From Escherichia coli (GTDB taxonomy: Bacteria > Pseudomonadota > Gammaproteobacteria > Enterobacterales > Enterobacteriaceae), in assembly GCF_041248615.1 (NCBI RefSeq), contig NZ_CP158426.1: DNA of 64,000 bases. One strand, 5' to 3'. The notes below the pieces were generated by a model. The model ran no database searches. It saw only the letters and a list, made by a program, of their open reading frames with translations, and was not told the origin of the DNA. The position numbers and the translations under genes were made by a program. This document shows, one piece after another, positions 45 through 56,079 of this stretch (positions are counted from its first letter, which is position 1; every line of letters begins with the position of its first letter).

Positions 45-88
45 AACCCTACCTTACTTGTGACTGATTTTTAAAAGAACCCGGGAAA

Positions 89-680: not shown

Positions 681-708
681 AAAAAGCACCTGAAAAGGTG
701 CTTTTTTA
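681..708. terminator. Bidirectional intrinsic terminator downstream of cysK
   Basis: Hairpin agcacc-tgaaaa-ggtgct flanked by an A-run and a T-run, seen directly in sequence. Confidence 0.6.
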
Positions 709-729
709 CGCATTTTTAACAAGCTGGCA

Positions 730-1701: not shown

Positions 1702-1885
1702 GGCCTGTCCTTAACTGTATGAAATTGGGATACAACAGGTAGCATACCCGCTCAGAGAATATGCGGAAGTAAGGATTTAGCATATCTATATGCAGAAGGG
1801 AAATAATGACATGCAAGATGGAATAAGGGGCGGCATAAGCCACCCCTGTTTCACACAAGCGGTTTACAAAATAACCGGTAGATTG

Positions 1886-2647: not shown

Positions 2648-2876
2648 AATCAGGATGAGCTCCTTTTGACCAATCCCAGGAAAATTCTGCGTATTTTACC
2701 GGGTAATTGCGCAATGGACAGTTAGGATATGTTCGAAAAAACAGCAAAAAGCACGATTTCATCTATCTTTGTGCTGTGAAAGTTAATAGTGCACTTGCAC
2801 TTGAGGTAATCGGCAAATACTCTTAGTGAGTAAATGTTTGCCGTGGTGGCAAGGTGTTAGAACAACAGAGAATATA

Positions 2877-33947: not shown

Positions 33948-34323
33948 GGGTGACTCTGAATAAGGATTAAACCTCTATGATAGGTAACCTGAAGGCTGAT
34001 GACCAGCAGGCCGTTTTTGAGGAAAAACCACAATTTTAAAAGGGGATTGAAAGATAAATGGTGTATTAGCAATGCATCTCTTGATAATGCACATCTGCTT
34101 GGTAAATTTATTGAAATTATAATGTTAATAAAATGAGTGGTAATTTTCTTGTTAGCGCAGATAAATTTCCTGTTTTTGAAGTGGAGTTCCTCATTTAAAG
34201 CGATTGATAAAAATGTTCTAAAACGCTGGACAGACAGAAATTAATCAGGCTATTTTCAAAACAGCCACCATCGTGGCAGCGTCGCTCGGACGGTCCGGGC
34301 GCTAACGTTAATCTGAGGAAATT

Positions 34324-35562
34324 ATGGCTGACACTCGCCCTGAACGTCGCTTTACGCGCATTGATCGTCTCCCGCCCTACGTTTTTAATATTACCGCTGA
34401 ACTGAAAATGGCTGCGCGTCGGCGCGGCGAAGATATTATCGATTTCAGTATGGGTAACCCGGACGGTGCGACTCCGCCGCACATCGTCGAAAAATTATGT
34501 ACTGTGGCCCAGCGCCCGGACACGCATGGTTACTCCACGTCACGCGGCATTCCGCGGCTACGTCGCGCCATTTCCCGCTGGTATCAGGATCGCTACGACG
34601 TTGAAATCGACCCGGAATCAGAAGCCATCGTCACTATTGGTTCGAAAGAGGGACTGGCGCATCTGATGCTGGCGACGCTGGATCATGGTGACACGGTGCT
34701 GGTGCCTAATCCAAGCTACCCCATTCATATTTATGGCGCGGTGATTGCAGGGGCGCAGGTACGCTCAGTGCCGCTGGTGGAAGGTGTCGATTTCTTCAAC
34801 GAACTGGAACGCGCCATTCGCGAAAGTTATCCGAAACCGAAGATGATGATCCTCGGCTTCCCGTCGAACCCAACCGCGCAATGCGTGGAACTGGAATTCT
34901 TTGAGAAGGTTGTGGCGCTGGCAAAACGCTACGATGTGCTGGTGGTCCATGACCTGGCCTATGCCGATATCGTCTACGATGGCTGGAAAGCGCCGTCAAT
35001 CATGCAGGTGCCGGGCGCACGCGACGTGGCGGTCGAGTTCTTTACCCTGTCGAAAAGTTACAACATGGCGGGCTGGCGTATCGGCTTTATGGTTGGCAAC
35101 AAAACGCTGGTCAGCGCGTTGGCACGTATTAAAAGCTATCACGATTACGGCACCTTTACGCCGTTGCAGGTGGCAGCGATTGCGGCGCTGGAGGGCGATC
35201 AACAGTGCGTGCGCGACATTGCTGAACAGTACAAACGCCGCCGTGATGTACTGGTAAAAGGGCTGCATGAAGCGGGCTGGATGGTCGAAATGCCGAAGGC
35301 TTCGATGTATGTCTGGGCGAAAATCCCGGAACCGTATGCTGCCATGGGCTCGCTGGAATTTGCCAAGAAGCTGCTGAACGAAGCGAAGGTCTGTGTCTCT
35401 CCGGGGATTGGCTTTGGCGACTACGGCGACACGCATGTTCGCTTTGCACTGATTGAAAACCGCGACCGTATTCGTCAGGCGATTCGTGGAATTAAAGCGA
35501 TGTTCCGTGCCGACAGTTTACTACCCGCCAGCAGCAAACATATTCACGAAAACGCGGAATAA
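34324..35562 (+). CDS. alaC: Glutamate-pyruvate aminotransferase
   Basis: 412-aa PLP-dependent class I/II aminotransferase; formerly yfdZ. Confidence 0.9.
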
Positions 35563-35583
35563 ACACCATCGCCAGAAATGCAA

Positions 35584-35609
35584 ACAGGAGCCAGATGGCT
35601 CCTGTTTTT
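35584..35609 (+). terminator. Intrinsic terminator after alaC
   Basis: caggagcca-ga-tggctcctg hairpin followed by TTTTT. Confidence 0.65.
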
Positions 35610-35626
35610 CATTGCACAGTTTGCTT

Positions 35627-35698
35627 TTAGATCATCAGGGCAAAAGTACCGGCCCAAACGATGACCATAAAAGAAATGCCCATAAAGAAATATTTCAC
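35627..35698 (-). CDS. ypdK: Small membrane protein YpdK
   Basis: 23 codons (GTG start) giving VKYFFMGISFMVIVWAGTFALMI, matching the K-12 small protein YpdK as I recall it. Confidence 0.55.
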   Translation of the reverse strand: MKYFFMGISFMVIVWAGTFALMI

Positions 35699-36052
35699 TT
35701 TACATCTCTCCGCGTAATTACTGTTACGCCTGAATGACTTCATTACACCTGATACAGTGAGTTGACACCGGGCAAAACGACCTTAAAAGTCCTGTATTTT
35801 ACCGTGGGCATCACCCCAGAATTCTGAGCTAAACTGCTCCAGACGGCGCTAATGTACGCCTAAAACTGAAACGAGACAAGAGGCATTTTCTTATTTACTT
35901 TTAGTAACTTACAGGTGTCTCATATCGGCGACAGTTTAATTTCTGACGGTAATAATTAGAGATTCAGCGAAGGAAAAAACTTAAGAAAAAAGCCATAAAA
36001 ACCATGAGGTTATTATGGCTGATTTGAGGAGGGAAAGAGTAAGAGCAGTTTG

Positions 36053-36973
36053 TTAAATGTATAGCGACGATTCTCCCACCGGGCGCGTTTTAAAGCGACG
36101 GTGGATCCAGAGGTACTGCTCCGGTGCGCGCATGATCTCTTTTTCGATAATCTTGTTCATATAGGCAGCGGCTTGATTTTCATCTGCCGGGTAGCCTTCC
36201 ATCTCTGGGGTGATGTACAAACGATATCCGCTGTAATCCGCTTTTCTTACCATCGTTACGGTTAACATGGCTGCGCCAGAGAGACGTGAAAGGACATACG
36301 TACCATTGGTTGTGGCGACATTTTCCACCGCAAAGAACGGCGCGAAGGAGCTGCCTTTACGACCATAATCCTGATCGGGAGCAAACCATACCGCTTCACC
36401 TTTCTTCAGTGCACCGACAATGCCGCGCAGATTATTTCTGCCGATCATCGCTTTGTTAGAGCGCATGCGCCCACGGGTCTGCACCCATTCCATCAGCTGA
36501 TTATTATGTGGACGATAGGTAGCCATCATTGGTTGGCACAGTCCCATCACGCGGCCGCCCAGTTCCAGCGACATAAAATGGACGCCGACAACCATTACGC
36601 CGCGATTTTGCATTTGTGCGCGTTTAAGGTTATCCAACCCTTCAACATCAAACCATTTACGTACGCGACTGTCGGGCCAGAACCACGCCATGCCGGTTTC
36701 TACCAGCGCCATGCCGAGTGAACGAAAGTTTTCGGCAATCATCTTCTCGCGTTCTTCCGCAGAATGCTGTGGGAAACAAAGTTCCAGGTTTTTACGGGCG
36801 ATAGATTCACGCCGTTTCAGGAATGGTCGCGCCATTGCGCCAATACGCGTGCCGAGAAAGCAGAGAACAGGATAAGGAAGCTGTACCCAAAGCCAGAGTA
36901 CACCAAGCCCAAACCACGTGAGCCAGTAGCGAGGATGCAGAAACTCGCGGGAAAATTTGCATTTTGGAAACAT
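36053..36973 (-). CDS. lpxP: Lipid A palmitoleoyltransferase (cold-induced LpxL paralogue)
   Basis: 306 aa from MFPKCKFSREFLHPRYWLTWFGLG; track start 37039 is an over-extension. Confidence 0.9.
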   Translation of the reverse strand: MFPKCKFSREFLHPRYWLTWFGLGVLWLWVQLPYPVLCFLGTRIGAMARPFLKRRESIARKNLELCFPQHSAEEREKMIAENFRSLGMALVETGMAWFWPDSRVRKWFDVEGLDNLKRAQMQNRGVMVVGVHFMSLELGGRVMGLCQPMMATYRPHNNQLMEWVQTRGRMRSNKAMIGRNNLRGIVGALKKGEAVWFAPDQDYGRKGSSFAPFFAVENVATTNGTYVLSRLSGAAMLTVTMVRKADYSGYRLYITPEMEGYPADENQAAAYMNKIIEKEIMRAPEQYLWIHRRFKTRPVGESSLYI

Positions 36974-37325
36974 AGTTACCTTCTGTAGATACGAATTGTT
37001 GTATCGCAGAAGATTCCATGTCGACAGCGGTACACTCAATTGATTAGGCCATCATGTACGACAATGGTTCCTGTAAAGAGTGTAAAGACTAGTCAGGACA
37101 TAACCACGAGGAGCATGAATGCGGTATCTGTACTTTATCACTCGCTGACTGCTTTCAGCTACTGATTATTAATCGTGCAAAGTAAATATTTTTCCGTACG
37201 CAACAGTCTTGCATTTAACATGCTGTTTTCATTGATGCTTAGCAAAAATTGCCAGAGGTTAAGGATTGTCTTACTATTAAAGTGACTGAAGTTACAGGTT
37301 TTTTAGCGCGGCAGGAGGTTGAGCT

Positions 37326-37568
37326 ATGATTTATTTATGGATGTTTCTCGCCCTGTGTATTGTCTGCGTAAGCGGATACATCGGTCAGGTACTGAACGTG
37401 GTATCGGCGGTCTCTTCTTTCTTCGGCATGGTGATCCTCGCTGCACTCATTTATTACTTCACCATGTGGTTAACTGGCGGTAATGAACTGGTGACGGGGA
37501 TATTTATGTTTCTTGCCCCGGCTTGTGGCTTGATGATTCGCTTTATGGTGGGATATGGCAGGCGGTAG
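37326..37568 (+). CDS. yfdY: DUF2545 small inner membrane protein
   Basis: 80-aa two-TM ORF. Confidence 0.8.
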   Translation: MIYLWMFLALCIVCVSGYIGQVLNVVSAVSSFFGMVILAALIYYFTMWLTGGNELVTGIFMFLAPACGLMIRFMVGYGRR

Positions 37569-37644
37569 TGGGTCAGGATGGCTCATTTGGGCAGGTGTTC
37601 ACATCAGCATCAGACATGATTGTTCACCTGCCGTGTGACAGACG

Positions 37645-37872
37645 CTATCGCACAGGATGGATAAGATAATTCGCCTTTGTCGGAAAAGGGGGCGGAATTT
37701 CTTCTGTGAGGTTTAATGGTGGCGCATCTTCTCTCATTTTTAACAAAATCGCCTGTGATGGCTGAAATTTTGTAGAGTGAGTTGTCGTCATCGCTGACGT
37801 TTTTTCCGTCTCTTTATAGCTCGTCTCACTTCCACCACCAGAAATGGAAAATGCAAAAACATTGCATGCCAT
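37645..37872 (-). pseudogene. ypdI: Probable 5'-truncated ypdI (lipoprotein gene) abutting IS1
   Basis: 75-codon ORF MACNVFAFSISGGGSETSYKETEK... whose upstream frame runs straight into the IS1 left end at 37878; no signal peptide remains. Confidence 0.45.
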
Positions 37873-37932
37873 AATAGGGTGATGCTGCCAACTTACTGAT
37901 TTAGTGTATGATGGTGTTTTTGAGGTGCTCCA

Positions 37933-38208
37933 GTGGCTTCTGTTTCTATCAGCTGTCCCTCCTGTTCAGCTACTGACGGGGTGGTGCGTAACGGCAAAAG
38001 CACCGCCGGACATCAGCGCTATCTCTGCTCTCACTGCCGTAAAACATGGCAACTGCAGTTCACTTACACCGCTTCTCAACCCGGTACGCACCAGAAAATC
38101 ATTGATATGGCCATGAATGGCGTTGGATGCCGGGCAACCGCCCGCATTATGGGCGTTGGCCTCAACACGATTTTCCGCCATTTAAAAAACTCAGGCCGCA
38201 GTCGGTAA
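37933..38208 (+). CDS. insA: IS1 InsA
   Basis: 91 aa [43 protein letters not shown]... Confidence 0.95.
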
Positions 38209-38630
38209 CCTCGCGCATACAGCCGGGCAGTGACGTCATCGTCTGCGCGGAAATGGACGAACAGTGGGGATACGTCGGGGCTAAATCGCGCCAGCGCTGG
38301 CTGTTTTACGCGTATGACAGGCTCCGGAAGACGGTTGTTGCGCACGTATTCGGTGAACGCACTATGGCGACGCTGGGGCGTCTTATGAGCCTGCTGTCAC
38401 CCTTTGACGTGGTGATATGGATGACGGATGGCTGGCCGCTGTATGAATCCCGCCTGAAGGGAAAGCTGCACGTAATCAGCAAGCGATATACGCAGCGAAT
38501 TGAGCGGCATAACCTGAATCTGAGGCAGCACCTGGCACGGCTGGGACGGAAGTCGCTGTCGTTCTCAAAATCGGTGGAGCTGCATGACAAAGTCATCGGG
38601 CATTATCTGAACATAAAACACTATCAATAA
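38127..38630 (+). CDS. insB: IS1 InsB frame (expressed as InsAB' by -1 frameshift)
   Basis: 167-aa [19 protein letters not shown]... overlapping the insA 3' end in the -1 frame. Confidence 0.9.
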
Positions 38631-38646
38631 GTTGGAGTCATTACCT

Positions 38647-39222
38647 AATGCATTAAGTGCTGTGCGCGATGTATTGCGCGAGAACCAGGATATTTATTTA
38701 GTTAATGAAGGTGCAAATACCCTGGATAATGCACGAAATATTATTGATATGTATAAACCACGTCGCCGTCTGGATTGTGGTACCTGGGGTGTCATGGGCA
38801 TCGGTATGGGCTATGCCATCGGTGCTAGCGTGACCTCTGGTTCTCCGGTTGTCGCCATTGAAGGTGATAGTGCTTTTGGTTTCAGTGGGATGGAGATTGA
38901 AACGATTTGTCGATATAACCTGCCGGTGACGATCGTTATTTTTAATAATGGCGGCATTTACAGAGGAGACGGTGTTGATCTCAGTGGCGCTGGTGCACCA
39001 TCACCAACGGATCTGCTGCACCATGCAAGGTATGACAAATTAATGGATGCGTTTCGTGGCGTTGGCTATAACGTCACTACGACAGATGAACTTCGTCATG
39101 CTTTAACCACCGGTATTCAGTCGCGCAAACCGACCATTATTAATGTGGTCATCGACCCTGCAGCAGGAACTGAAAGTGGCCATATTACCAAACTTAACCC
39201 AAAACAAGTCGCTGGTAATTAA
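38647..39222 (+). pseudogene. oxc: oxc 3' remnant (C-terminal ~192 codons of oxalyl-CoA decarboxylase)
   Basis: Frame [27 protein letters not shown]...[33 protein letters not shown] is the TPP-binding C-terminal domain; N-terminal two-thirds absent; the track ORF begins at a TTG inside the IS1 right end (38632). Confidence 0.85.
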
Positions 39223-39290: not shown

Positions 39291-40235
39291 ATGCTAACAT
39301 TTTTTATTGGCGATTTATTGCCTATTATCGTAATCATGCTGTTGGGTTATTTTAGCGGCAGACGAGAAACTTTTTCAGAAGATCAAGCCCGGGCATTTAA
39401 TAAACTGGTATTAAACTACGCTCTTCCTGCGGCCCTATTTGTTTCTATTACCCGGGCAAACAGGGAAATGATTTTTGCGGACACTCGCCTGACCCTTGTA
39501 TCACTTGTGGTTATTGTCGGATGTTTCTTTTTCTCCTGGTTTGGTTGCTACAAATTTTTTAAACGTACTCATGCAGAAGCAGCAGTATGTGCATTAATTG
39601 CAGGTTCACCTACCATCGGATTCCTGGGATTTGCAGTTCTCGATCCTATTTATGGTGATTCCGTATCAACAGGTTTAGTTGTAGCAATTATTTCTATTAT
39701 TGTTAACGCAATTACTATTCCTATTGGTCTGTATTTGCTGAATCCTTCCTCAGGAGCAGATGGTAAGAAGAATAGTAATCTGAGCGCATTAATTTCTGCG
39801 GCAAAGGAGCCAGTAGTATGGGCACCTGTTCTGGCAACGATCCTGGTGTTGGTTGGGGTAAAAATTCCGGCAGCATGGGACCCAACCTTTAATCTGATTG
39901 CGAAGGCTAACTCAGGGGTAGCGGTATTCGCTGCGGGGTTGACTCTGGCTGCACATAAATTCGAGTTCAGTGCTGAAATTGCTTATAACACCTTCCTGAA
40001 GCTGATTCTGATGCCACTGGCGCTGCTTCTCGTGGGTATGGCATGTCATTTGAACAGCGAACATTTGCAGATGATGGTACTGGCAGGCGCCTTACCGCCG
40101 GCATTCTCCGGAATCATTATTGCCAGCCGGTTTAATGTCTACACCCGCACTGGTACAGCATCATTGGCTGTGAGCGTACTGGGCTTTGTCGTCACGGCTC
40201 CTTTGTGGATTTATGTCAGTCGACTGGTTTCATAA
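39291..40235 (+). CDS. yfdV: AEC-family (auxin efflux carrier-like) transporter
   Basis: 314-aa polytopic membrane ORF. Confidence 0.85.
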
Positions 40236-40308: not shown

Positions 40309-41454
40309 ATGACAAATAATGAATGCAAAGGGCCGTTTGAAGGCTTATTAGTTATCGATATGACACATGTCCTTAATGGACCTTTCGGAACTCAACTTCT
40401 TTGTAATATGGGCGCAAGGGTAATTAAAGTTGAGCCGCCGGGTCATGGTGATGATACCCGCACATTTGGTCCCTATGTGGATGGGCAGTCACTCTATTAC
40501 AGTTTTATTAATCATGGCAAAGAGAGTGTGGTTCTTGATTTAAAGAATGCTCACGATAAAAGTATATTTATAAATATGCTTAAACAAGCTGATGTATTAG
40601 CTGAGAATTTTCGCCCAGGTACAATGGAAAAACTGGGGTTTTCATGGGAAAGGTTACAAGAAATCAACCCGCGCCTCATCTATGCTTCATCGTCGGGTTT
40701 CGGGCATACCGGTCCGTTAAAAGATGCTCCTGCCTACGATACCATTATTCAGGCAATGAGCGGGATAATGATGGAAACAGGGTACCCTGATGCTCCTCCA
40801 GTGCGTGTTGGTACCTCTCTTGCGGATCTATGCGGCGGTGTCTATTTATTCAGCGGAATAGTGAGTGCACTTTATGGTCGCGAAAAGAGCCAGAGAGGGG
40901 CGCATGTCGATATAGCGATGTTTGATGCCACGCTGAGTTTTCTGGAGCATGGTCTGATGGCATATATTGCGACAGGGAAGTCACCACAACGCCTGGGAAA
41001 TCGCCATCCCTACATGGCACCTTTTGATGTTTTTGATACTCAGGATAAGCCGATTACGATTTGTTGTGGTAATGACAAGCTTTTTTCTGCGTTATGCCAG
41101 GCACTGGAGCTTACAGAACTGGTTGATGATCCCCGATTTATCAGCAATATTTTACGCGTACAAAACCAGGCTATTCTTAAACAATATATTGAGCGGACGT
41201 TAAAAACACAGGCAGCTGAAGTTTGGTTAGCCAGAATACATGAAGTTGGTGTACCCGTAGCGCCGTTATTAAGTGTGGCTGAGGCCATTAATTTGCCACA
41301 AACTCAGGCGAGAAATATGTTGATTGAAGCCGGGGGAATAATGATGCCGGGTAATCCGATAAAAATCAGCGGCTGCGCGGACCCGCATGTTATGCCGGGA
41401 GCGGCAACGCTCGACCAGCATGGGGAACAAATTCGCCAGGAATTCTCATCGTAA
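40309..41454 (+). CDS. yfdE: Acetyl-CoA:oxalate CoA-transferase (family III CoA transferase)
   Basis: 381 aa from MTNNECKGPFEGLLVIDMTHVLNGPFGTQ; track start 40270 is an over-extension. Confidence 0.85.
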   Translation: MTNNECKGPFEGLLVIDMTHVLNGPFGTQLLCNMGARVIKVEPPGHGDDTRTFGPYVDGQSLYYSFINHGKESVVLDLKNAHDKSIFINMLKQADVLAENFRPGTMEKLGFSWERLQEINPRLIYASSSGFGHTGPLKDAPAYDTIIQAMSGIMMETGYPDAPPVRVGTSLADLCGGVYLFSGIVSALYGREKSQRGAHVDIAMFDATLSFLEHGLMAYIATGKSPQRLGNRHPYMAPFDVFDTQDKPITICCGNDKLFSALCQALELTELVDDPRFISNILRVQNQAILKQYIERTLKTQAAEVWLARIHEVGVPVAPLLSVAEAINLPQTQARNMLIEAGGIMMPGNPIKISGCADPHVMPGAATLDQHGEQIRQEFSS

Positions 41455-41508: not shown

Positions 41509-44500
41509 TTAGTCATTTTGTTGACAGAAAACAGCAATCTCCTGGTCCAGCTCTGCAATGTGTTCTTTAACAGAGTTCAGCAGCTGAAGAATTTCAGGCT
41601 TACTGTCATCTGAAACAGGTGTTATTTCTAACTGATGGCTAATATTAATCAACTTTTGCAAATTCAGGATGTTAGCCGCACCGTGGATGCGATGAATACA
41701 CTGATGGAAAGTTCTGTTGTCGCCAGCTTCTAGTGCATGAAACGCAGCGGGTAGATCTTTATGCGTTTCATGCTGGAAAGTCATGAGAATCTCCTGCATC
41801 AGTTGTAGATCGTTCGCCGTATTATTTTTCAGGGCCTCGATATCAAGGTGGCGATACTGAGGTGCAATAGGCGCAACCTGGTGTAACTGACTTAAATGTG
41901 TTTTCATTACATCCAGGGTCAACGGTTTGAACAAACATAAGTTCATGCCGTAATTTAACCCTTTTTCACGTTCGTTAGCCTGTGCGTTGGCTGTAAGCCC
42001 CCAGATGGGTAAGGAAGAATTTTGCTCACGGAGTTTGCGAGTCAACTCAAAACCATCCATATTCGGCATATTAACGTCAGTAATAAGCAGATCATAATGT
42101 TGCATACTGACTTTGTGTAGCGCTTGCACACCATCAGTTGCTTCATCAACATCATATCCTAATAGGTTTAGCTGGCGTTTGAGTAATAGCCTGTTGGTCG
42201 GATGATCATCCGCGATTAATATGCTCAACTTTTCAGGGAGTGTCATGGGTTGTTCTGCTTTTGCCTCGACAGTCGCCACTTGTTGGGTAATTTCTACCGG
42301 GATTGTGATCGTAAATGTCGTTCCTATGCCTGGATGACTTTCTAATGACAAATCGCCCTGCATGTTTTTAATTAATTCTTTGCAGATCATTAAGCCTAAA
42401 CCAGAACCTGTTTGCTGACGACCTGCACTTGTTTGGCTATAGCGTTTAAACAGTTGTTGTTGTTCTTCCTGTGATAATCCACTTCCAGAATCCATAATCG
42501 TCATTTTGATTACAGCGTGGTTGTCATCAATGTTAACCAGGGAGGTCGTAATTTTTACTGCCCCCTCGGTGGTAAATTTGAGAGCATTGCTCAGTAAATT
42601 AGATAAGACCTGCTTAAACGCCTGAGGGTCGATCTTAACCAGGTAATGTTCAGGAAACGTACTGCTGCAACTTAATGCGATCGATTTGCTTGCAGCAATC
42701 GCACCGAAAGAGTGACAAGTGTTCTGGACTAAAGTAGGGATATCGACCCATTGTGGTTGAAGTTGATAGTTACCCGACTCAATTTTGTCGACATCAAGGA
42801 TTTCACCAATTAAGCCGAGGAGTGATTGTCCGGTGGCGTAGGCAAGTGAAATCGCCTCCACCCGTTGCTCCTTGCTAAGACCAGAACCCGACAGAAGTTC
42901 CAGGAAGCCCATAATGGAGCTTATTGGTGTTCTTATTTCGTGACTCATTGTTGCCAGAAACTGGCTTTTTGCGACAGTTGCATTGATCGCTTTATTTCTC
43001 TCTACTTCGAGTGCATGAATTAAATCACGCGTCTCGGTAATATCTTGCCAACCACAAATATAAACAGCATGATCGCTGGCTGGCAGATTGCATAATGTAT
43101 GCCAGTGATTAATGCATCTTTTCTCTATGCCATTATCAATTTCAAATACCTGTGTGTATATTGTTCGATTTTCTTTCGTTTCTGCTGTGACTTCATGCGC
43201 ATTAGAAAAAACATCTTTAAAGGGTGAGTCACTGTTTTCTAATGGTAACATTGCATTTTTGTAGTAATCCGCAGTGAAATAATGTTCAAAAGCACTATTA
43301 TGACTAATGACATTACCTTGCCAGTTTACAACATAAGTTGGATTCGGTAAGGAATCCGAGAGTGCTTTTCGGAATGATATTTGGTTTTCTAAATCACCCT
43401 GAATGACTTTACGACGACGAACTGAGCGTAACAGGTAGAATCCCCATAAAAGGCTACTGCCAACTAATAAAACGGATAATGTCGTGACAATATAAAATTG
43501 CTCGCTATAGAGGTCCCATGTGTCAATGGTCACATTGGGCATTTTAATCCATTTTTCCGTCAGGCGCAGAACTTCGCTTGGGGGAATTGCATTCAGAGCT
43601 TTATTAATAATATCCTTAAGTTCCGGTTCTCCGCGAGGAAAAGCGAACGAAAGCGATGCATTCTGAACGCCGGGAATAAGAAAATGATAAAGTTCATTAG
43701 GATAGTAATGGTCGATCATGTAACGTGAATTTAGCTGTGTCGCGACCAGAGCATCAAGTTCACCTTCCTTGACCTTGTGAAATGCAGCGCTGGCGTTATC
43801 GACTTTTATCCACTCTACCTCCGGATACATCTCTTTTAATTGCGAATGCAGCTCATAATAATATGGAATGGCAACTTTCATTCCTTTTTTTAATGTTTGT
43901 TCACTGTCAGGCGCTTTTTGCATGACAAAAACGTAAGGCGTTGTTATGAAGGCTTCAGCAAATAAAACATTATTTTCTCTATCTTCACTATAAATAGCAC
44001 CGGGTAATATATCCCATCCGCCGGGATTCAGCTGTGTTCCAGCATGGATATTGTGTGAAACGGTGATCGGAGAAAAATTTAAACCTGTTTGCAAGGTAAT
44101 AATATTAAGAATATCCCCCATAACGCCCCGAACCGAGCCATTTTCATCCGTCATAGAATAGGGAGGGGAGTAAGGATTTTCCAGCACCTTTAAATCGGGA
44201 TGCTGCTTAATCCACTGTTTTTCATGTTCAGTGAGTTCTAATGGTTTGTTCAGAAAGGCCAGGTTTCCTGTATCAAGCCAATTTTGTGATACTTCATAGC
44301 GAACTTCGTTTGTCAAAGCATCAACAAATCGATTGAGTACTTCATTAAGAACGACAGATTCTTTTCTGGTCAAGAAAAAATTATATTGACGCGGTGAGTT
44401 ATAATATTTCACTACATTTAAGGAGTGAGTGAAATAGCGGGAAATCATACTGCTGGTAATAATGTTACTACCAATAAAGTAATCATTCTGTCCGGCTGAG

Positions 44501-45102
44501 ACGGATGCTAATGCCTGATATAAATTTGTAAAAGAGATAATTGTTGCTTTTGGAAATGATTGATGAATTACCTCGTCTGGAGGGTAATTTGCTACCCGAG
44601 CAATATTTACTGGTTTTGATGAGGTAAGCGGTCTCATTGAATCGTGAAGGGTGGTGACGAGCGCCGGAAAGGTAATTATCAGCGGTTTGGTTGCAGCAAT
44701 GTCATCATTAAGAGGCGGCGAAGCAACTAAATGTGATAACACTATATCGACTTCCCCTTCTGTAAGCGCGTCCATTGCTTTTTGATGATCTGCGTATTCC
44801 CGGAGTGTTAATTTGATATTTAACGCTCTTTTTAAAAGATTTAAATAATCAGCATTAATACCACGAACCCGTTGCTGCGAATCGGTATGCAACAAAGTAG
44901 CCGTTTGGGACTTGTGTACTGCAATCACAAGATTTTTTTTGCTCGCTAACCAACGTAATTCCTTGTTGCTCAGACGTAGTGGATCAAGCGTGACACGGTT
45001 GTTACTACTGATGCCACGATATTCGATGTAATCTTCGTCTGCGAAACTTATGGTCGACCAAAGACCACAACAGAGAAGAATAATATAGGGTAAAAACTTC
45101 AT
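41509..45102 (-). CDS. evgS: Hybrid sensor histidine kinase EvgS
   Basis: 1197 aa with periplasmic domains, HisKA/HATPase, receiver and HPt domains. Confidence 0.95.
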   Translation of the reverse strand: MKFLPYIILLCCGLWSTISFADEDYIEYRGISSNNRVTLDPLRLSNKELRWLASKKNLVIAVHKSQTATLLHTDSQQRVRGINADYLNLLKRALNIKLTLREYADHQKAMDALTEGEVDIVLSHLVASPPLNDDIAATKPLIITFPALVTTLHDSMRPLTSSKPVNIARVANYPPDEVIHQSFPKATIISFTNLYQALASVSAGQNDYFIGSNIITSSMISRYFTHSLNVVKYYNSPRQYNFFLTRKESVVLNEVLNRFVDALTNEVRYEVSQNWLDTGNLAFLNKPLELTEHEKQWIKQHPDLKVLENPYSPPYSMTDENGSVRGVMGDILNIITLQTGLNFSPITVSHNIHAGTQLNPGGWDILPGAIYSEDRENNVLFAEAFITTPYVFVMQKAPDSEQTLKKGMKVAIPYYYELHSQLKEMYPEVEWIKVDNASAAFHKVKEGELDALVATQLNSRYMIDHYYPNELYHFLIPGVQNASLSFAFPRGEPELKDIINKALNAIPPSEVLRLTEKWIKMPNVTIDTWDLYSEQFYIVTTLSVLLVGSSLLWGFYLLRSVRRRKVIQGDLENQISFRKALSDSLPNPTYVVNWQGNVISHNSAFEHYFTADYYKNAMLPLENSDSPFKDVFSNAHEVTAETKENRTIYTQVFEIDNGIEKRCINHWHTLCNLPASDHAVYICGWQDITETRDLIHALEVERNKAINATVAKSQFLATMSHEIRTPISSIMGFLELLSGSGLSKEQRVEAISLAYATGQSLLGLIGEILDVDKIESGNYQLQPQWVDIPTLVQNTCHSFGAIAASKSIALSCSSTFPEHYLVKIDPQAFKQVLSNLLSNALKFTTEGAVKITTSLVNIDDNHAVIKMTIMDSGSGLSQEEQQQLFKRYSQTSAGRQQTGSGLGLMICKELIKNMQGDLSLESHPGIGTTFTITIPVEITQQVATVEAKAEQPMTLPEKLSILIADDHPTNRLLLKRQLNLLGYDVDEATDGVQALHKVSMQHYDLLITDVNMPNMDGFELTRKLREQNSSLPIWGLTANAQANEREKGLNYGMNLCLFKPLTLDVMKTHLSQLHQVAPIAPQYRHLDIEALKNNTANDLQLMQEILMTFQHETHKDLPAAFHALEAGDNRTFHQCIHRIHGAANILNLQKLINISHQLEITPVSDDSKPEILQLLNSVKEHIAELDQEIAVFCQQND

Positions 45103-45106
45103 GTGG

Positions 45107-45721
45107 TTAGCCGATTTTGTTACGTTGTGCGAATGTGTAAAGATCCATCAGTGATTTACATTCTAATTTTTCCATCAGGCGACTTTTATAAGTGCTGACA
45201 GTTTTGTTGCTGATGAACATTTTTTCCGCAATGTCATTATTATCCTTGCCATCAAGAATATATCGCATGACACTAATTTCTTGTTTCGATAAGGAGTCGA
45301 GTTTTTGCTGGTCGGACGTTAAACTTCCAACAAACCGGTTGAGAGAGAAGGGGAAATAGCAGTAGCCATTTTTTGCAGCTTCAATAGCCGCAATGATATT
45401 GTTCATGCCTTCTTTTTTACTCACGAATCCATTAGCGCCAGCATCAGCACAATGTTTCCCGTAAAAATGGTCATTTTTAGCGGAGACGATAATAATAATT
45501 CCGCTATATTGGCGCTTCCTCAGCGTTTCTAACACCTGGATACCGTTAACTCCGGGGATATCGACATCAATGATGACGATATCAGGTTTAAGTGTTTCCA
45601 CCCGCTGAACGGCACTTCCCCCTTCAGTCAACTCCGCTAAGATTTCAATATCGTTTTTGATCAATAAATTACGAATTGCTGCGATAGCAAGAGGATGGTC
45701 ATCAATAATTATTGCGTTCAT
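45107..45721 (-). CDS. evgA: Response regulator EvgA (NarL/FixJ family)
   Basis: 204 aa, MNAIIIDDHPLAIAAIRNLL receiver plus LuxR-type HTH. Confidence 0.95.
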   Translation of the reverse strand: MNAIIIDDHPLAIAAIRNLLIKNDIEILAELTEGGSAVQRVETLKPDIVIIDVDIPGVNGIQVLETLRKRQYSGIIIIVSAKNDHFYGKHCADAGANGFVSKKEGMNNIIAAIEAAKNGYCYFPFSLNRFVGSLTSDQQKLDSLSKQEISVMRYILDGKDNNDIAEKMFISNKTVSTYKSRLMEKLECKSLMDLYTFAQRNKIG

Positions 45722-45945: not shown

Positions 45946-45963
45946 ATCCTACATGCGTAAGAA
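45946..45963. promoter_or_regulatory. Candidate EvgA box in the evgA-emrK divergent region
   Basis: atcctaca-tg-cgtaagaa resembles the 18-bp EvgA inverted-repeat consensus TTCYTACA-NN-TGTARGAA (2 mismatches). Confidence 0.4.
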
Positions 45964-46136: not shown

Positions 46137-47300
46137 GTGGAACAGATTAATTCAAATAAAAAACATTCTAACAGAAGAAAATACTTTTCTTTATTGGCGG
46201 TAGTTTTATTTATTGCGTTTTCAGGTGCCTATGCCTATTGGTCAATGGAATTAGAAGACATGATTAGTACAGATGACGCCTATGTCACGGGGAATGCAGA
46301 TCCAATTTCTGCACAAGTTTCAGGCAGCGTCACTGTCGTTAATCATAAAGATACGAACTACGTTCGACAGGGTGACATTTTAGTCTCACTGGATAAGACT
46401 GATGCCACTATCGCACTCAATAAAGCTAAAAATAATCTGGCCAATATTGTTCGGCAAACGAATAAACTGTACTTACAGGATAAACAATACAGTGCCGAAG
46501 TCGCTTCAGCACGTATTCAGTATCAACAATCTTTAGAAGATTATAACCGTCGTGTACCTTTAGCGAAGCAGGGGGTTATTTCAAAAGAAACGCTGGAGCA
46601 TACCAAAGATACGTTAATAAGTAGCAAAGCGGCATTGAATGCTGCTATTCAGGCTTATAAAGCGAATAAAGCTTTAGTAATGAACACACCATTAAACCGT
46701 CAGCCACAAGTCGTTGAAGCGGCGGATGCAACCAAAGAAGCCTGGTTGGCGCTTAAACGTACGGATATTAAGAGTCCGGTTACCGGCTATATTGCCCAGC
46801 GAAGTGTTCAGGTCGGCGAAACAGTGAGTCCCGGACAATCGTTAATGGCTGTCGTACCGGCACGTCAAATGTGGGTTAATGCTAACTTTAAAGAAACACA
46901 ACTCACGGATGTACGGATTGGTCAATCGGTCAATATTATCAGCGATCTTTATGGTGAAAATGTTGTGTTTCATGGTCGGGTGACAGGGATCAATATGGGA
47001 ACCGGCAATGCGTTCTCCTTATTACCTGCACAAAATGCGACAGGGAACTGGATCAAAATCGTTCAGCGTGTACCGGTTGAAGTTTCTCTTGATCCAAAAG
47101 AACTCATGGAACATCCCTTACGTATTGGTTTATCGATGACAGCAACTATTGATACGAAGAACGAAGACATTGCCGAGATGCCTGAGCTGGCTTCAACCGT
47201 GACGTCCATGCCTGCTTATACCAGTAAGGCTTTAGTTATCGATACCAGTCCGATAGAAAAAGAAATTAGCAACATTATTTCGCATAATGGACAACTTTAA
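46137..47300 (+). CDS. emrK: Multidrug efflux periplasmic adaptor (EmrA paralogue)
   Basis: 387-codon ORF from a GTG; true start may be an internal ATG; HlyD-family adaptor. Confidence 0.85.
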   Translation: MEQINSNKKHSNRRKYFSLLAVVLFIAFSGAYAYWSMELEDMISTDDAYVTGNADPISAQVSGSVTVVNHKDTNYVRQGDILVSLDKTDATIALNKAKNNLANIVRQTNKLYLQDKQYSAEVASARIQYQQSLEDYNRRVPLAKQGVISKETLEHTKDTLISSKAALNAAIQAYKANKALVMNTPLNRQPQVVEAADATKEAWLALKRTDIKSPVTGYIAQRSVQVGETVSPGQSLMAVVPARQMWVNANFKETQLTDVRIGQSVNIISDLYGENVVFHGRVTGINMGTGNAFSLLPAQNATGNWIKIVQRVPVEVSLDPKELMEHPLRIGLSMTATIDTKNEDIAEMPELASTVTSMPAYTSKALVIDTSPIEKEISNIISHNGQL

Positions 47301-48838
47301 TGGCAATCACTAAATCAACTCCGGCACCATTAACCGGTGGGACGTTATGGTGCGTCACTATTGCATTGTCATTAGCGACGTTTATGCAAATGTTGGATTC
47401 CACTATTTCTAACGTCGCAATACCGACAATATCTGGCTTTCTGGGAGCATCAACAGACGAAGGCACCTGGGTTATCACCTCGTTTGGCGTAGCAAATGCC
47501 ATTGCGATCCCTGTTACCGGCAGGCTGGCACAAAGAATAGGCGAATTAAGATTATTTTTACTTTCAGTCACTTTTTTTTCGCTGTCTTCCTTAATGTGTA
47601 GTTTATCGACCAATCTTGATGTGCTGATATTTTTTAGAGTCGTTCAGGGATTAATGGCGGGGCCGTTAATTCCACTGTCACAGAGTTTATTATTAAGGAA
47701 TTATCCACCAGAAAAAAGAACATTTGCTCTGGCATTATGGTCTATGACCGTGATTATCGCGCCGATATGTGGGCCGATATTGGGCGGTTATATTTGTGAT
47801 AACTTTAGCTGGGGTTGGATATTTTTAATCAATGTCCCTATGGGGATTATCGTCCTGACATTATGCTTAACCTTACTTAAAGGAAGAGAAACTGAGACTT
47901 CACCGGTCAAAATGAATCTACCAGGACTGACCCTGTTAGTGCTCGGTGTTGGTGGCTTGCAAATTATGCTCGATAAAGGGCGCGATCTGGATTGGTTCAA
48001 CTCGAGTACAATAATAATACTAACAGTAGTGTCAGTTATTTCTCTGATCTCTTTAGTCATTTGGGAGTCGACCTCAGAGAATCCGATTCTTGACCTCAGT
48101 TTGTTTAAGTCCCGTAATTTCACCATTGGTATTGTGAGTATCACATGCGCGTATTTATTTTACTCTGGGGCAATAGTCCTTATGCCGCAATTACTCCAGG
48201 AAACGATGGGGTATAATGCGATATGGGCCGGACTTGCCTATGCGCCCATCGGCATCATGCCGCTATTAATATCGCCTTTGATAGGACGTTATGGCAACAA
48301 AATTGATATGCGGTTGTTGGTGACATTTAGTTTTTTAATGTATGCGGTTTGCTATTACTGGCGTTCTGTGACATTTATGCCAACGATTGATTTTACAGGC
48401 ATCATTTTGCCACAGTTTTTCCAGGGATTCGCCGTCGCCTGTTTCTTTTTACCCTTAACAACGATTTCGTTTTCAGGTTTGCCAGATAATAAATTTGCCA
48501 ATGCCTCGAGTATGAGTAATTTTTTTCGTACCTTGTCAGGATCAGTTGGTACGTCGTTGACAATGACGCTGTGGGGACGACGCGAATCGTTACACCATAG
48601 TCAGTTGACAGCAACCATCGATCAATTTAACCCCGTGTTTAATTCATCGTCACAAATTATGGATAAATACTATGGTTCGCTTTCAGGGGTTCTTAATGAA
48701 ATTAATAATGAAATAACTCAGCAGTCACTTTCAATTTCTGCAAATGAGATTTTCCGTATGGCGGCTATTGCTTTTATCTTACTTACGGTTTTGGTTTGGT
48801 TTGCGAAACCGCCGTTTACAGCGAAAGGCGTTGGGTGA
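47300..48838 (+). CDS. emrY: MFS multidrug efflux transporter (EmrB paralogue)
   Basis: 512-aa 14-TM MFS protein; start overlaps the emrK stop (TAATG). Confidence 0.9.
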   Translation: MAITKSTPAPLTGGTLWCVTIALSLATFMQMLDSTISNVAIPTISGFLGASTDEGTWVITSFGVANAIAIPVTGRLAQRIGELRLFLLSVTFFSLSSLMCSLSTNLDVLIFFRVVQGLMAGPLIPLSQSLLLRNYPPEKRTFALALWSMTVIIAPICGPILGGYICDNFSWGWIFLINVPMGIIVLTLCLTLLKGRETETSPVKMNLPGLTLLVLGVGGLQIMLDKGRDLDWFNSSTIIILTVVSVISLISLVIWESTSENPILDLSLFKSRNFTIGIVSITCAYLFYSGAIVLMPQLLQETMGYNAIWAGLAYAPIGIMPLLISPLIGRYGNKIDMRLLVTFSFLMYAVCYYWRSVTFMPTIDFTGIILPQFFQGFAVACFFLPLTTISFSGLPDNKFANASSMSNFFRTLSGSVGTSLTMTLWGRRESLHHSQLTATIDQFNPVFNSSSQIMDKYYGSLSGVLNEINNEITQQSLSISANEIFRMAAIAFILLTVLVWFAKPPFTAKGVG

Positions 48839-50292: not shown

Positions 50293-50511
50293 TTAGATGA
50301 TAAATGACAGCAGGAATGTGCCCGCCAGAGCGACGACTGAAGCGATAAATGTCGCGGTCGTATAGTATTTAAATGTTTCATTGAGCGTAGCGTCGCAATA
50401 TTGCTTCACCAGCCAGAAAAGCGAGTCCGTAACGATCGTGCAGCCAATCGCACCTGAACCGATAGCAATCGCAATAATTTCCGGGCTGATGTCGGGATAC
50501 AGCGGCAGCAC
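50293..50511 (-). pseudogene. dsdX: dsdX 3' remnant (last ~70 codons of the D-serine permease gene)
   Basis: Frame ...[71 protein letters not shown] is a GntP-family C-terminus; the upstream frame hits a stop within 15 nt, so the 5' ~85% of the gene is absent. Confidence 0.8.
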
Positions 50512-50753
50512 AATGATCCATATTTATATTTTCTTCTCCAGATTGGCGATGCCAGTTGGCATGTTTTACCTACTTGCCTACATGGTTACTCGTTGGCGAG
50601 AACAGAGGCGGAATTGGGTACAATTGTCCGGGAATTATTGTTATTTTTTATTGTATTGCCGTGTCGGGTGATAGGGCGTCGAGAATATCGTTGGATCTCG
50701 CCAGTGACGTCTGTTTCTGCTACAGTGCCCGTTTTACGGCAAACGGCTTGGGT

Positions 50754-51749
50754 ATGGCTTCATTAAAGGATGTCGCACGCCTGGCGGGAGTGTCGATGAT
50801 GACAGTCTCCCGGGTGATGCATAATGCAGAATCTGTGCGTCCTGCAACGCGTGATCGCGTATTGCAGGCAATCCAGACCCTGAATTATGTTCCTGATCTT
50901 TCCGCCCGTAAGATGCGCGCTCAAGGACGTAAGCCGTCGACTCTCGCCGTGCTGGCGCAGGACACGGCCACCACTCCTTTCTCTGTTGATATTCTGCTTG
51001 CCATTGAGCAAACCGCCAGCGAGTTCGGCTGGAATAGTTTTTTAATCAATATTTTTTCTGAAGATGACGCTGCCCGCGCGGCACGTCAGCTGCTTGCCCA
51101 CCGTCCGGATGGCATTATCTATACAACAATGGGGCTGCGACATATCACGCTGCCTGAGTCTCTGTATGGTGAAAATATTGTATTGGCGAACTGTGTGGCG
51201 GATGACCCAGCGTTACCCAGTTATATCCCTGATGATTACACTGCACAATATGAATCAACACAGCATTTGCTCGCGGCGGGCTATCGTCAACCGTTATGCT
51301 TCTGGCTACCGGAAAGTGCGTTGGCAACAGGGTATCGTCGGCAGGGATTTGAGCAGGCCTGGCGTGATGCTGGACGAGATCTGGCTGAGGTGAAACAATT
51401 TCACATGGCAACAGGTGATGATCACTACACCGATCTCGCAAGTTTACTCAATGACCACTTCAAATCTGGCAAACCAGATTTTGATGTTCTGATATGTGGT
51501 AACGATCGCGCAGCCTTTGTCGCTTATCAGGTTCTCCTGGCGAAGGGGGTACGTATCCCGCAGGATGTCGCCGTAATGGGCTTTGATAATCTGGTTGGCG
51601 TCGGGCATCTGTTTTTACCGCCGCTGACCACAATTCAGCTTCCACATGACATTATCGGGCGGGAAGCTGCATTGCATATTATTGAAGGTCGTGAAGGGGG
51701 AAGAGTGACGCGGATCCCTTGCCCGCTGTTGATCCGTTGTTCCACCTGA
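50754..51749 (+). CDS. cscR: Sucrose operon repressor (LacI family)
   Basis: 331 aa from MASLKDVARLAGVSMMTVSRVMHN (LacI-type HTH); track start 50556 is a TTG over-extension. Confidence 0.9.
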   Translation: MASLKDVARLAGVSMMTVSRVMHNAESVRPATRDRVLQAIQTLNYVPDLSARKMRAQGRKPSTLAVLAQDTATTPFSVDILLAIEQTASEFGWNSFLINIFSEDDAARAARQLLAHRPDGIIYTTMGLRHITLPESLYGENIVLANCVADDPALPSYIPDDYTAQYESTQHLLAAGYRQPLCFWLPESALATGYRRQGFEQAWRDAGRDLAEVKQFHMATGDDHYTDLASLLNDHFKSGKPDFDVLICGNDRAAFVAYQVLLAKGVRIPQDVAVMGFDNLVGVGHLFLPPLTTIQLPHDIIGREAALHIIEGREGGRVTRIPCPLLIRCST

Positions 51750-51756
51750 TATTATG

Positions 51757-53190
51757 TTAACCCAGTTGCCAGAGTGCTCCATGTTGCAGCACAGCCACTC
51801 CGTGGGAGGCATAGAGCGACAGTTCCCGTTCTTCTGGCTGCGGATATATTCGGCTACTCATCACCGCCTCCCCGTCGTTAATAAATACTTCCACGGATGA
51901 TGTATCGATAAATATCCTTAGGGCGAGCATGTCACCCTGCGGGAGGGGAATACTACGGTAGCCATCTAAATTCTCGTGTGGGTAATACCGCCACAAAACA
52001 AGTCGCTCAGATTGGTTATCAATATACAGCCGCATTCCAGTGCCGAGCTGTAATCCGTAATGTTCGGCATCACTGTTCTTCAGCGCCCACTGCAACTGAA
52101 TCTCAACTGCTTGCGCGTTTTCCTGCAAAACATATTTATTGCTGATTGTGCGGGGAGAGATAGATTGATGCTGCTGGCGTAACGACTCAGCTTCGTGTAC
52201 CGGGCGTTGTAGAAGTTTGCCATTGCTCTCTGATAGCTCGCGCGCCAGCGTCATGCAGCCTGCCCAGCCTTCACGTTTTGAGGGCATTGGCGATTCCCAC
52301 ATATCCATCCAGCCGATAACAATACGCCGACCATCCTTCGCTAAAAAGCTTTGTGGTGCATAAAAGTCATGCCCGTTATCAAGTTCAGTAAAATACCCGG
52401 ATTGTGCAAAAAGTCGTCCTGGCGACCACATTCCGGGTATTACGCCACTTTGAAAGCGATTTCGGTAACTGTATCCCTCGGCATTCATTCCCTGCGGGGA
52501 AAACATCAGATAATGCTGATCGCCAAGGCTGAAAAAGTCCGGACATTCCCACATATAGCTTTCACCCGCATCAGCGTGGGCCAGTACGCGATCGAAGGTC
52601 CATTCACGCAATGAACTGCCGCGATAAAGCAAGATCTGCCCCGTGTTGCCTGGATCTTTCGCCCCGACAACCATCCACCATGTGTCGGCTTCACGCCACA
52701 CTTTAGGATCGCGGAAGTGCATGATGCCTTCTGGTGGAGTGAGGATCACGCCCTGTTTCTCGAAATGAATACCATCCCGACTGGTAGCCAGACATTGTAC
52801 TTCGCGAATTGCATCGTCATTACCAGCACCATCGAGCCAGACGTGTCCGGTGTAGATAAGTGAGAGGACACCATTGTCATCGACAGCACTACCTGAAAAA
52901 CACCCGTCTTTGTCATTCTCGTCTCCTGGCGCTAGCGCAATAGGCTCATGCTGCCAGTGGATCATATCGTCGCTGGTGGCATGTCCCCAGTGCATTGGCC
53001 CCCAGTGTTCGCTCATCGGGTGATGTTGATAAAACGCGTGATAACGATCGTTAAACCAGATCAGGCCGTTTGGATCGTTCATCCACCCGGCAGGAGGCGC
53101 GAGGTGAAAATGGGGATAGAAAGTGTTACCTCGGCGCTCGTGAAGTTTTGCTAGTGCGTTTTGCGCCGCATGTAATCGAGATTGCGTCAT
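51757..53190 (-). CDS. cscA: Sucrose-6-phosphate hydrolase / invertase (GH32)
   Basis: 477 aa from MTQSRLHAAQNALAKL; GH32 motifs WMNDPNG and RDP. Confidence 0.9.
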   Translation of the reverse strand: MTQSRLHAAQNALAKLHERRGNTFYPHFHLAPPAGWMNDPNGLIWFNDRYHAFYQHHPMSEHWGPMHWGHATSDDMIHWQHEPIALAPGDENDKDGCFSGSAVDDNGVLSLIYTGHVWLDGAGNDDAIREVQCLATSRDGIHFEKQGVILTPPEGIMHFRDPKVWREADTWWMVVGAKDPGNTGQILLYRGSSLREWTFDRVLAHADAGESYMWECPDFFSLGDQHYLMFSPQGMNAEGYSYRNRFQSGVIPGMWSPGRLFAQSGYFTELDNGHDFYAPQSFLAKDGRRIVIGWMDMWESPMPSKREGWAGCMTLARELSESNGKLLQRPVHEAESLRQQHQSISPRTISNKYVLQENAQAVEIQLQWALKNSDAEHYGLQLGTGMRLYIDNQSERLVLWRYYPHENLDGYRSIPLPQGDMLALRIFIDTSSVEVFINDGEAVMSSRIYPQPEERELSLYASHGVAVLQHGALWQLG

Positions 53191-53405
53191 TTTTATCATC
53201 CTGGTTAAGCAAATTTGGTGAATTGTTAACGTTAACTTTTATAAAAATAAAGTCCCTTACTTTCATAAATGCGATGAATATCACAAATGTTAACGTTAAC
53301 TATGACGTTTTGTGATCGAATATGCATGTTTTAGTAAATCCATGACGATTTTGCGAAAAAGAGGTTTATCACTATGCGTAAGTCAGATGAATTTAAGGGA
53401 AAAAA

Positions 53406-54329
53406 ATGTCAGCCAAAGTATGGGTTTTAGGGGATGCGGTCGTAGATCTCTTGCCAGAATCAGACGGGCGGCTACTGCCTTGTCCTGGCGGCGCGCCAGC
53501 TAACGTTGCGGTGGGAATCGCCAGATTAGGCGGAACAAGTGGGTTTATAGGTCGGGTCGGTGATGATCCTTTTGGTGCGTTAATGCAAAGAACGCTGCTA
53601 ACTGAGGGTGTCGATATCACGTTTCTGAAGCAAGATGAATGGCACCGGACATCCACGGTGCTTGTCGATCTGAACGATCAAGGAGAACGTTCATTTACGT
53701 TTATGGTCCGCCCCAGTGCCGATCTTTTTTTAGAGACGACAGACTTGCCCCGCTGGCGACATGGCGAATGGTTACATCTCTGTTCAATTGCGTTGTCTGC
53801 CGAGCCTTCGCGTACCAGCGCATTTACTGCGATGACGGCGATCCGGCATGCCGGAGGTTTTGTCAGCTTCGATCCCAATATTCGTGAAGATCTATGGCAA
53901 GACGAGCATTTGCTCCGCTTGTGTTTGCGGCAGGCGCTACAACTGGCGGATGTCGTCAAGCTCTCGGAAGAAGAATGGCGACTTATCAGTGGAAAAACAC
54001 AGAACGATCGGGATATATGCGCCCTGGCAAAAGAGTATGAGATCGCCATGCTGTTGGTGACTAAAGGTGCAGAAGGGGTGGTGGTCTGTTATCGAGGACA
54101 AGTTCACCATTTTGCTGGAATGTCTGTGAATTGTGTCGATAGCACTGGGGCGGGAGATGCGTTCGTTGCCGGGTTACTCACAGGTCTGTCCTCTACGGGA
54201 TTATCTACAGATGAGAGAGAAATGCGACGAATTATCGATCTCGCTCAACGTTGCGGAGCGCTTGCAGTAACAGCGAAAGGGGCAATGACAGCGCTGCCAT
54301 GTCGACAAGAACTGGAAGGTGAGAAGTAA
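53406..54329 (+). CDS. cscK: Fructokinase (pfkB/ribokinase family)
   Basis: 307 aa, MSAKVWVLGDAVVDLL...GAGDAF motifs. Confidence 0.9.
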   Translation: MSAKVWVLGDAVVDLLPESDGRLLPCPGGAPANVAVGIARLGGTSGFIGRVGDDPFGALMQRTLLTEGVDITFLKQDEWHRTSTVLVDLNDQGERSFTFMVRPSADLFLETTDLPRWRHGEWLHLCSIALSAEPSRTSAFTAMTAIRHAGGFVSFDPNIREDLWQDEHLLRLCLRQALQLADVVKLSEEEWRLISGKTQNDRDICALAKEYEIAMLLVTKGAEGVVVCYRGQVHHFAGMSVNCVDSTGAGDAFVAGLLTGLSSTGLSTDEREMRRIIDLAQRCGALAVTAKGAMTALPCRQELEGEK

Positions 54330-54390
54330 ACGGCGAGGCCGCTCTTATCTCTAAATAGGACATGAATTTTTTAACGACAGGCAGGTAATT

Positions 54391-55638: not shown

Positions 55639-56079
55639 ACGTAAACTTTTTCCGGTTGTTGTCGATATCTCCATATCCCTCAACCGGAAAATAATAATAC
55701 AAAAATGCTTAGCCCAACTAATAATCACCTAATCCAAACGCCTCATTCATGTTCTGGTACAGTCGCTCAAATGTACTCCGGATACGCGGTTCGCTGATTT
55801 CCAGGACATTGTCGTCATTCAGCGACCTGTCCCGAGTATCACGGGCCTGCGAATTCATCAAGGAATGCATTGCAGAGTGAAGTATCGAGTCACGCCATAT
55901 TTCGCTATCAGGATTCTGTATGATGGTTACATCGCCCAGCCCAGGGCTGTTTAGTCATCAGCGCTTTCTGACAGTGCTGAGATTTCAACCTGTTGCAGTA
56001 AAAATGAGTAGATATAGGGCAAGTGTGCTGCCAAACCCATCTTTTACGGGGTGAAGGTAGATTTGGTTTGAAGGGTATC

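Follow-up and report, generated by a model that had tools for sequence, protein, structure and literature searches.

The 64-kb window of Escherichia coli DNA analysed here (the whole stretch, positions 1-64000) lacks 3.9 kb of the ypdI-yfdX-frc-oxc region, and the missing segment begins exactly at the left end of a complete IS1 element. The loss was probably produced by IS1 itself, through adjacent deletion. It is a real but ordinary gene loss of a textbook kind, described to the base, and a clean natural example in which two otherwise identical genomes stand one IS1-adjacent deletion apart; because a third near-identical genome has an intact locus, the endpoints and their nesting can be placed at single-base resolution. 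The finding also suggests that ypdI contains a hot spot for IS1 targeting. No question of long standing is opened by it, and the oxalate module affected is not essential for general acid resistance.

A complete IS1 between two gene remnants

The element is a complete IS1 of the IS1B type, 768 bp long (37878-38645, plus strand), and the sole IS1 within the 64 kb. Reading of the sequence between 37400 and 39400 places its first bases, GGTGATGCTGCC, at 37878 and its last, GAGTCATTACC, at 38645. The terminal inverted repeats, aligned in the window, are 23 bp long and imperfect (IRL, 37878-37900; IRR, 38623-38645), so that both size and repeats (768 bp; ~23 bp, imperfect, GGTGATGCTGCCAACTTACTGAT / GGTAATGACTCCAACTTATTGAT) are those of IS1. 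The insA (37933-38208) and insB' (38127-38630) frames are open, both match NF033558, and the A6C motif for the -1 frameshift that gives the InsAB' transposase is intact (TTTAAAAAAC, 38181-38190). A copy with 100% identical sequence in E. coli NRZ14408 is annotated as an IS1B transposase with programmed frameshift.

The 9-mers that abut the two ends are different. On the left, ccataatag (37869-37877) adjoins IRL and forms the new left junction, which reads ...CCATAATAG joined to GGTGATGCTG; on the right, taatgcatt (38646-38654) adjoins IRR, corresponds to oxc nt 1119-1127 and forms the old right junction, presumably the original IS1 target site. The 30-bp flanks have no word longer than 6 bp in common, and the 6-bp word that they share lies out of register. 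Since the loss of a duplication is expected after a later rearrangement, its absence is no argument against the element being IS1. The initial annotation had described a complete IS1 at 37878-38646 without target-site duplication, set between a 5'-truncated ypdI and the last ~192 codons of oxc; all of this holds except the end of the element, which lies one base earlier. Separately, other genomes align at the right junction from 6 bp inside IS1, and we treated this microhomology as chance: the match between the native ATTACTT and the IS1 end ATTACC is imperfect and needs a gap.

To the left of IS1, yfdY is intact (37326-37568, plus strand, 80 aa; an ORF identical to the annotated yfdY of NRZ14408). 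It is followed by the ypdI remnant (37645-37877, minus strand; nt 44-276, or 233 of 276 nt), to which YpdI residues 16-91 align at 100% by tblastn. This remnant has lost its first 43 nt, that is, the start codon, the first 14 codons plus 1 nt, and the promoter, and with them most of the YpdI lipoprotein signal peptide. The sole ORF left in it is 75 aa long and starts at the internal Met17. To the right, the oxc remnant (38646-39222, plus strand) spans nt 1119-1695, which is codons 374-564 plus the stop (191 codons). It encodes the C-terminal ThDP-binding (PP) domain only; PF02775 was the single domain matched, and in the NF006721 profile, which has 574 positions, the residues fall at 382-571.

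Near-identical genomes define the extent of the deletion

The window aligns to NRZ14408 (NZ_LT599825.1), an mcr-1/KPC-2 clinical strain, at 100.000% identity in two blocks of 37,877 and 26,123 bp. Window positions 1-37877 equal record positions 1,568,001-1,605,877, and 37878-64000 equal 1,609,549-1,635,671. The sole difference in 64 kb is the absence of 3,671 bp (record 1,605,878-1,609,548) that abut the left end of IS1, the gap starting exactly at the first base of the element, while NRZ14408 has the identical IS1 and the identical right junction inside oxc, the gene for oxalyl-CoA decarboxylase. Relative to this parent, the change thus has the form of an adjacent deletion: it starts at an IS1 terminus and leaves both the IS1 and the other junction as they were. 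The window has the coordinate frame of the NRZ14408 record, its base 1 being record base 1,568,001, which equals 49 x 32,000 + 1; its source may thus be a sibling of that strain, or the strain itself in a re-sequenced or otherwise altered version.

NRZ14408 is itself rearranged. Its IS1 also lacks a duplication (ggcggcaga / taatgcatt), and its oxc lacks nt 885-1118, or 234 bp; the same structure is found at 100% identity in GCA_014863425.1. Isolate 362 (NZ_OW967178.1) has an intact locus, and some 9.8 kb of flanking sequence contain 2 SNPs between it and the window lineage. With isolate 362 as reference, 234 bp are missing in NRZ14408 and 3,905 bp in the window; with K-12 as reference, 3,907 bp are missing from the window. 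The lost DNA comprises ypdI nt 1-43, the ypdI-yfdX intergenic region, yfdX, the yfdX-frc intergenic region, frc and oxc nt 1-1118 (codons 1-373).

These comparisons bear out the earlier estimate that about 3-4 kb is missing relative to K-12, including frc and the N-terminal two-thirds of oxc. In NRZ14408, which is 100% identical elsewhere, ypdI, yfdX, frc and oxc nt 1-884 are all present, and the objection that this lineage never carried the genes at this locus therefore fails. No second copy of yfdX, frc or oxc is present within the 64-kb window. A simple insertion whose duplication has degenerated was considered as well and rejected, since 3.9 kb is missing relative to these relatives.

IS1 insertions and deletions recur at the locus

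Simple IS1 insertions at this locus in other complete genomes carry exact 9-bp duplications in five of five cases: one in oxc (locus L002), three in ypdI (L006, the first copy in L007, and L008) and one in yfdE (L023). The IS1 copies linked to deletions have none, again in five of five cases, namely those of the window, NRZ14408, FORC_081, CUVET17-972 and the second copy in JNEC-KY203 (the last three at L021 3738-4505, L022 4723-5490 and L007 8329-9096). Because all five simple insertions at the locus carry 9-bp duplications, a missing duplication is meaningful here.

The three insertions in ypdI, found in the unrelated genomes of ST131 strain 751, JNEC-KY203 and J2, are independent and lie 1, 6 and 7 bp from the left junction of the window (window 37865-37885; L006 6051-6068, L007 6057-6074, L008 6058-6075). 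Their duplications are gccataata, atagagacc and tagagacca, one of the insertions has the opposite orientation, and the IS1 variants involved share 95-99% identity with the window IS1. With three insertions and a deletion endpoint within 7 bp, the first 50 nt of ypdI are an apparent IS1 insertion hot spot. Because independent insertions lie within 7 bp of it, the left endpoint is apparently a site preferred by the IS1 transposase; an endpoint at such a site speaks for a target chosen by the transposase, and makes a random break or an artefact of editing less likely.

IS1-linked deletions at the locus also recur independently. In FORC_081 the structure is yfdX'-IS1-'oxc and 3,198 bp are missing. 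In CUVET17-972 it is ypdI-IS1-dsdA, and the whole stretch from yfdX to emrY is gone. JNEC-KY203, which carries two IS1 copies at the locus, has yfdX-IS1-dsdA, the loss running through evgAS and emrKY up to dsdA. In all three, as in the window, an IS1 without duplication replaces part or all of yfdXWUVE; unlike the window, CUVET17-972 and JNEC-KY203 have also lost evgAS-emrKY. The three are independent events with other endpoints, IS1 variants and strain backgrounds, and they share neither junction with the window.

From the NRZ14408 lineage, FORC_081, CUVET17-972 and JNEC-KY203 it could be argued that IS1-driven erosion of yfdXWUVE/evgAS is recurrently selected in host-associated multidrug-resistant E. 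coli, and is not neutral decay. We hold this reading to be improbable. If it were true, a strong IS1 hot spot in the 5' end of ypdI would provide the starting point of the erosion, the outcome would be akin to pathoadaptive "black hole" deletions, and selection might act via the cost of Frc without Oxc, or via that of YfdX.

Probable stepwise adjacent deletion and its alternatives

The probable course of events is an IS1-mediated adjacent deletion in at least two steps. First, IS1 would have inserted into oxc, duplicating TAATGCATT (oxc nt 1119-1127). IRL would then have gained a new junction at oxc nt 884, with loss of 234 bp and of the left-hand duplicate; the resulting state is the one observed in NRZ14408 and GCA_014863425.1. 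In a third step the IRL junction would have shifted 3,671 bp further left, into the site at the ypdI 5' end that IS1 favours; the corresponding change is the only difference between the window and NRZ14408, and the IRR junction is constant throughout. The likely chemistry, judged by established IS1 biology, is intramolecular replicative transposition: the IS1 ends would attack a nearby target on the same molecule, whereupon the intervening DNA would leave as a non-replicating circle with one IS1, and the chromosome would keep one IS1 and no duplication.

We infer that the NRZ-type state preceded the window-type state; both could also derive independently from a simple-insertion ancestor, and no such ancestor of the two states was found. 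NRZ14408 lacks both the duplication and the 234 bp, and the deletions are therefore nested from one fixed IS1 end. Judged from the sequences, nested deletions from one IS1 end are the classic signature of IS1 adjacent deletion.

Adjacent deletions caused by IS1 have been known since the 1970s, and the classical gal and Tn9 cases of IS1-promoted adjacent deletion are reportedly those of Reif & Saedler in 1975 and Turlan & Chandler in 1995. The window resembles the classical deletions in that the IS1 is retained intact and the deletion runs from its exact terminus, with the other junction left as it was and no 9-bp duplication present, and in that the endpoints vary and nest. In mechanism nothing sets it apart; it differs from them in its natural clinical mcr-1/KPC-2 background, as opposed to a selected laboratory event, and in being known here from sequence. 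Deletions without direct repeats are typical of IS1/Tn9 intramolecular transposition (PMC9330008), and adjacent deletions without duplications have been observed to start small and grow stepwise (PMC11708052). A stepwise case involving an element of the IS3 family follows the same course of insertion, small adjacent deletion and then extension, with deletion-linked copies that lack a duplication; the element there belongs to the IS3 and not to the IS1 family, and the order was proven by a time-series, whereas here it is deduced from two sibling genomes.

The proposal that the structure reflects an adjacent deletion and no simple insertion, put forward earlier from the window itself, gains its support from the NRZ14408 comparison; the sequence alone fits recombination between two IS1 copies too. 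In that alternative, a second IS1 in direct orientation would have entered the ypdI hot spot, duplicating ccataatag, and RecA-dependent recombination with the oxc copy would have removed the DNA between them along with one of the two IS1 copies. The product would be indistinguishable in sequence from an adjacent deletion. The ypdI site is a demonstrated IS1 target, two IS1 copies coexist at the locus in JNEC-KY203, and the NRZ14408 chromosome has about 9 IS1-matching places, so donors exist; recombination between IS copies is also a recognised cause of missing duplications (PMC11708052). However, the two-copy intermediate that this route requires was present in none of 5,426 complete genomes and the left junction likewise in none, the annotated NRZ14408 record has no IS1 in ypdI (though a transient copy there is conceivable), and the same rare route would be needed twice, for the 234-bp and for the 3,671-bp step. 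We therefore regard recombination between two copies as possible but rather unlikely.

A non-biological origin, through assembly collapse between IS1 copies or a change between versions of the NRZ14408 sequence, is a good deal less probable. The window is otherwise identical to NRZ14408 and shares its coordinate frame, and its left junction is absent from all searched public assemblies, as an artefact would have it. Yet a collapse requires another IS1 copy in ypdI, where the NRZ14408 record shows none; coincidence with the exact first base of IS1 and with a 7-bp IS1 hot spot is unlikely for an arbitrary edit or error; and analogous real deletions are present in other finished genomes. Finally, a deletion independent of IS1 that ended at the element by chance, through illegitimate or microhomology recombination or replication slippage, is very improbable: spontaneous deletions do occur, but nothing specific favours one here, one endpoint is precisely the outermost nucleotide of IS1, the endpoints share no useful microhomology, and a second, nested deletion has the same IS1 end.

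Consequences for the EvgA-controlled oxalate module

Whichever route was taken, with IS1 adjacent deletion being the one we favour, the contiguity of yfdX-frc-oxc-yfdV-yfdE next to evgS is broken and only 'oxc, yfdV and yfdE are left. Downstream of IS1, yfdV (39291-40235, plus strand, 314 aa; NF007384 positions 1-314 of 314) is intact and has no EvgA box, and yfdE, which encodes acetyl-CoA:oxalate CoA-transferase (40309-41454, plus strand, 381 aa; NF008511 positions 1-381 of 381), is intact as well. So are evgS (41509-45102, minus strand, 1197 aa), evgA (45107-45721, minus strand) and emrK-emrY (46137-48838, plus strand). The integrity of these genes, already proposed in the initial annotation, is supported by full-length profile matches and by the NRZ14408 annotation, which is valid for evgA, emrK and emrY of the window because the sequence is identical. 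Compared with K-12, in which the yfdXWUVE operon has the same gene order and flanks (lpxP-yfdY-ypdI ... evgSA-emrKY) at about 97% identity, the window differs in keeping only 'oxc-yfdV-yfdE, having lost both EvgA boxes of the operon, yfdX, frc and two-thirds of oxc.

As a separate observation, EvgS carries the substitution C1051Y (window 41951, codon 1051) in both the window and NRZ14408 when compared with isolate 362 and K-12. In the flanks that were compared, only two SNPs distinguish the lineage from isolate 362, and this is one of them.

A search of the NRZ14408 locus with a palindrome that we take to be the EvgA-box consensus gave 4 matches against 0.16 expected by chance. Two of these EvgA-box-like sites precede yfdX, a perfect match precedes frc, and the fourth lies between evgA and emrK. 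The first three (L001 4515, 4553 and 5544) are all inside the deleted segment, and the window accordingly has no such box in the yfdX and frc upstream positions; its sole remaining palindrome is the one in the evgA-emrK intergenic region (45946-45963, plus strand). EvgA activates yfdXWUVE via inverted repeats that precede yfdX and yfdW(frc)UVE (PMC3720670). From the sequence it would appear that both EvgA-activated promoter regions are lost, leaving yfdV-yfdE without known activator sites. A consensus scan for an outward promoter at the right end of IS1 found none and matched only the IS1 insA promoter region. With the EvgA sites gone and no obvious outward promoter, expression of yfdV-yfdE would have to come from read-through or from cryptic promoters.

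The regulator and its efflux target are thus intact, and the oxalate operon is without its activator sites, yfdX, frc and two-thirds of oxc. YfdW (Frc) and YfdU (Oxc) are required for the oxalate-induced response, according to the statement in PMC3720670 that cites Fontenot 2013, and oxalate-induced acid tolerance is predicted to be absent from a strain with the window arrangement. The initial annotation had held that the deletion disables the oxalate module. This is correct insofar as the operon is decapitated, but oxc was already broken in the parent by IS1 and the 234-bp deletion. Because oxc was already disrupted there, the 3.7-kb extension removed genes of an already non-functional operon: the large deletion extended an earlier knockout and did not cause it, and ypdI is a collateral loss.

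Distribution of the segment and junctions in public genomes

Loss of the segment is rare. Of 5,426 complete E. coli genomes, 5,397 match the 3,671-bp segment with a coverage of at least 80%, corresponding to loss in about 0.5%; the segment is typically single-copy (median one place per genome, highest 3). The right junction (IRR-taatgcatt) occurs in one of the 5,426 complete genomes, which is NRZ14408, and also in GCA_014863425.1, the assembly of NRZ type. The left junction of the window occurs in none of the 5,426 complete RefSeq E. coli genomes; no public assembly searched has it, and the window-type deletion therefore rests on one assembly.

Searches with the protein fragments gave a similar picture. 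The 196-aa Oxc fragment with a TTG start that the window encodes has no record in public assemblies. The matches to the 186-aa Oxc fragment comprise NRZ-type assemblies plus unrelated frameshifted oxc alleles, and the window arrangement is absent among those listed (ten places). The exact 75-aa YpdI remnant is encoded on one public contig only, the metagenomic k111_1779 of ENA ERZ27238078.

Positions 1-3643 of k111_1779 correspond to window 34283-37877 at 100% identity, and the contig has a Nextera (Tn5 mosaic-end) adaptor at both ends, one of which abuts the exact nucleotide where IS1 abuts in the window. The position of this adaptor may be a coincidence, with a chance estimated at a few percent in view of the way the contig was chosen, or may reflect a site favoured by both transposases.

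Several assemblies, mostly Logan read-set assemblies, have single-base deletions in oxc at varied positions within nt 1082-1108, which split the gene into fragments of about 365 aa and 186 aa. These frameshifted alleles may be sporadic pseudogenes or assembly errors, the look-up having selected for such cases.

Other features of the window

Further along the window, a csc sucrose island (50293-55900) encodes a LacI-type CscR, CscA, a CscK-like kinase and a CscB-like MFS protein. It adjoins a dsdX pseudogene truncated at its 5' end and, beside tRNA-Arg (argW), a DUF4942 fragment, and dsdA is intact; we take this to resemble the known variable argW-dsd/csc arrangement. Between mlaA and fadL lies a gene for a 415-aa "hypothetical protein" (58390-59637, minus strand).
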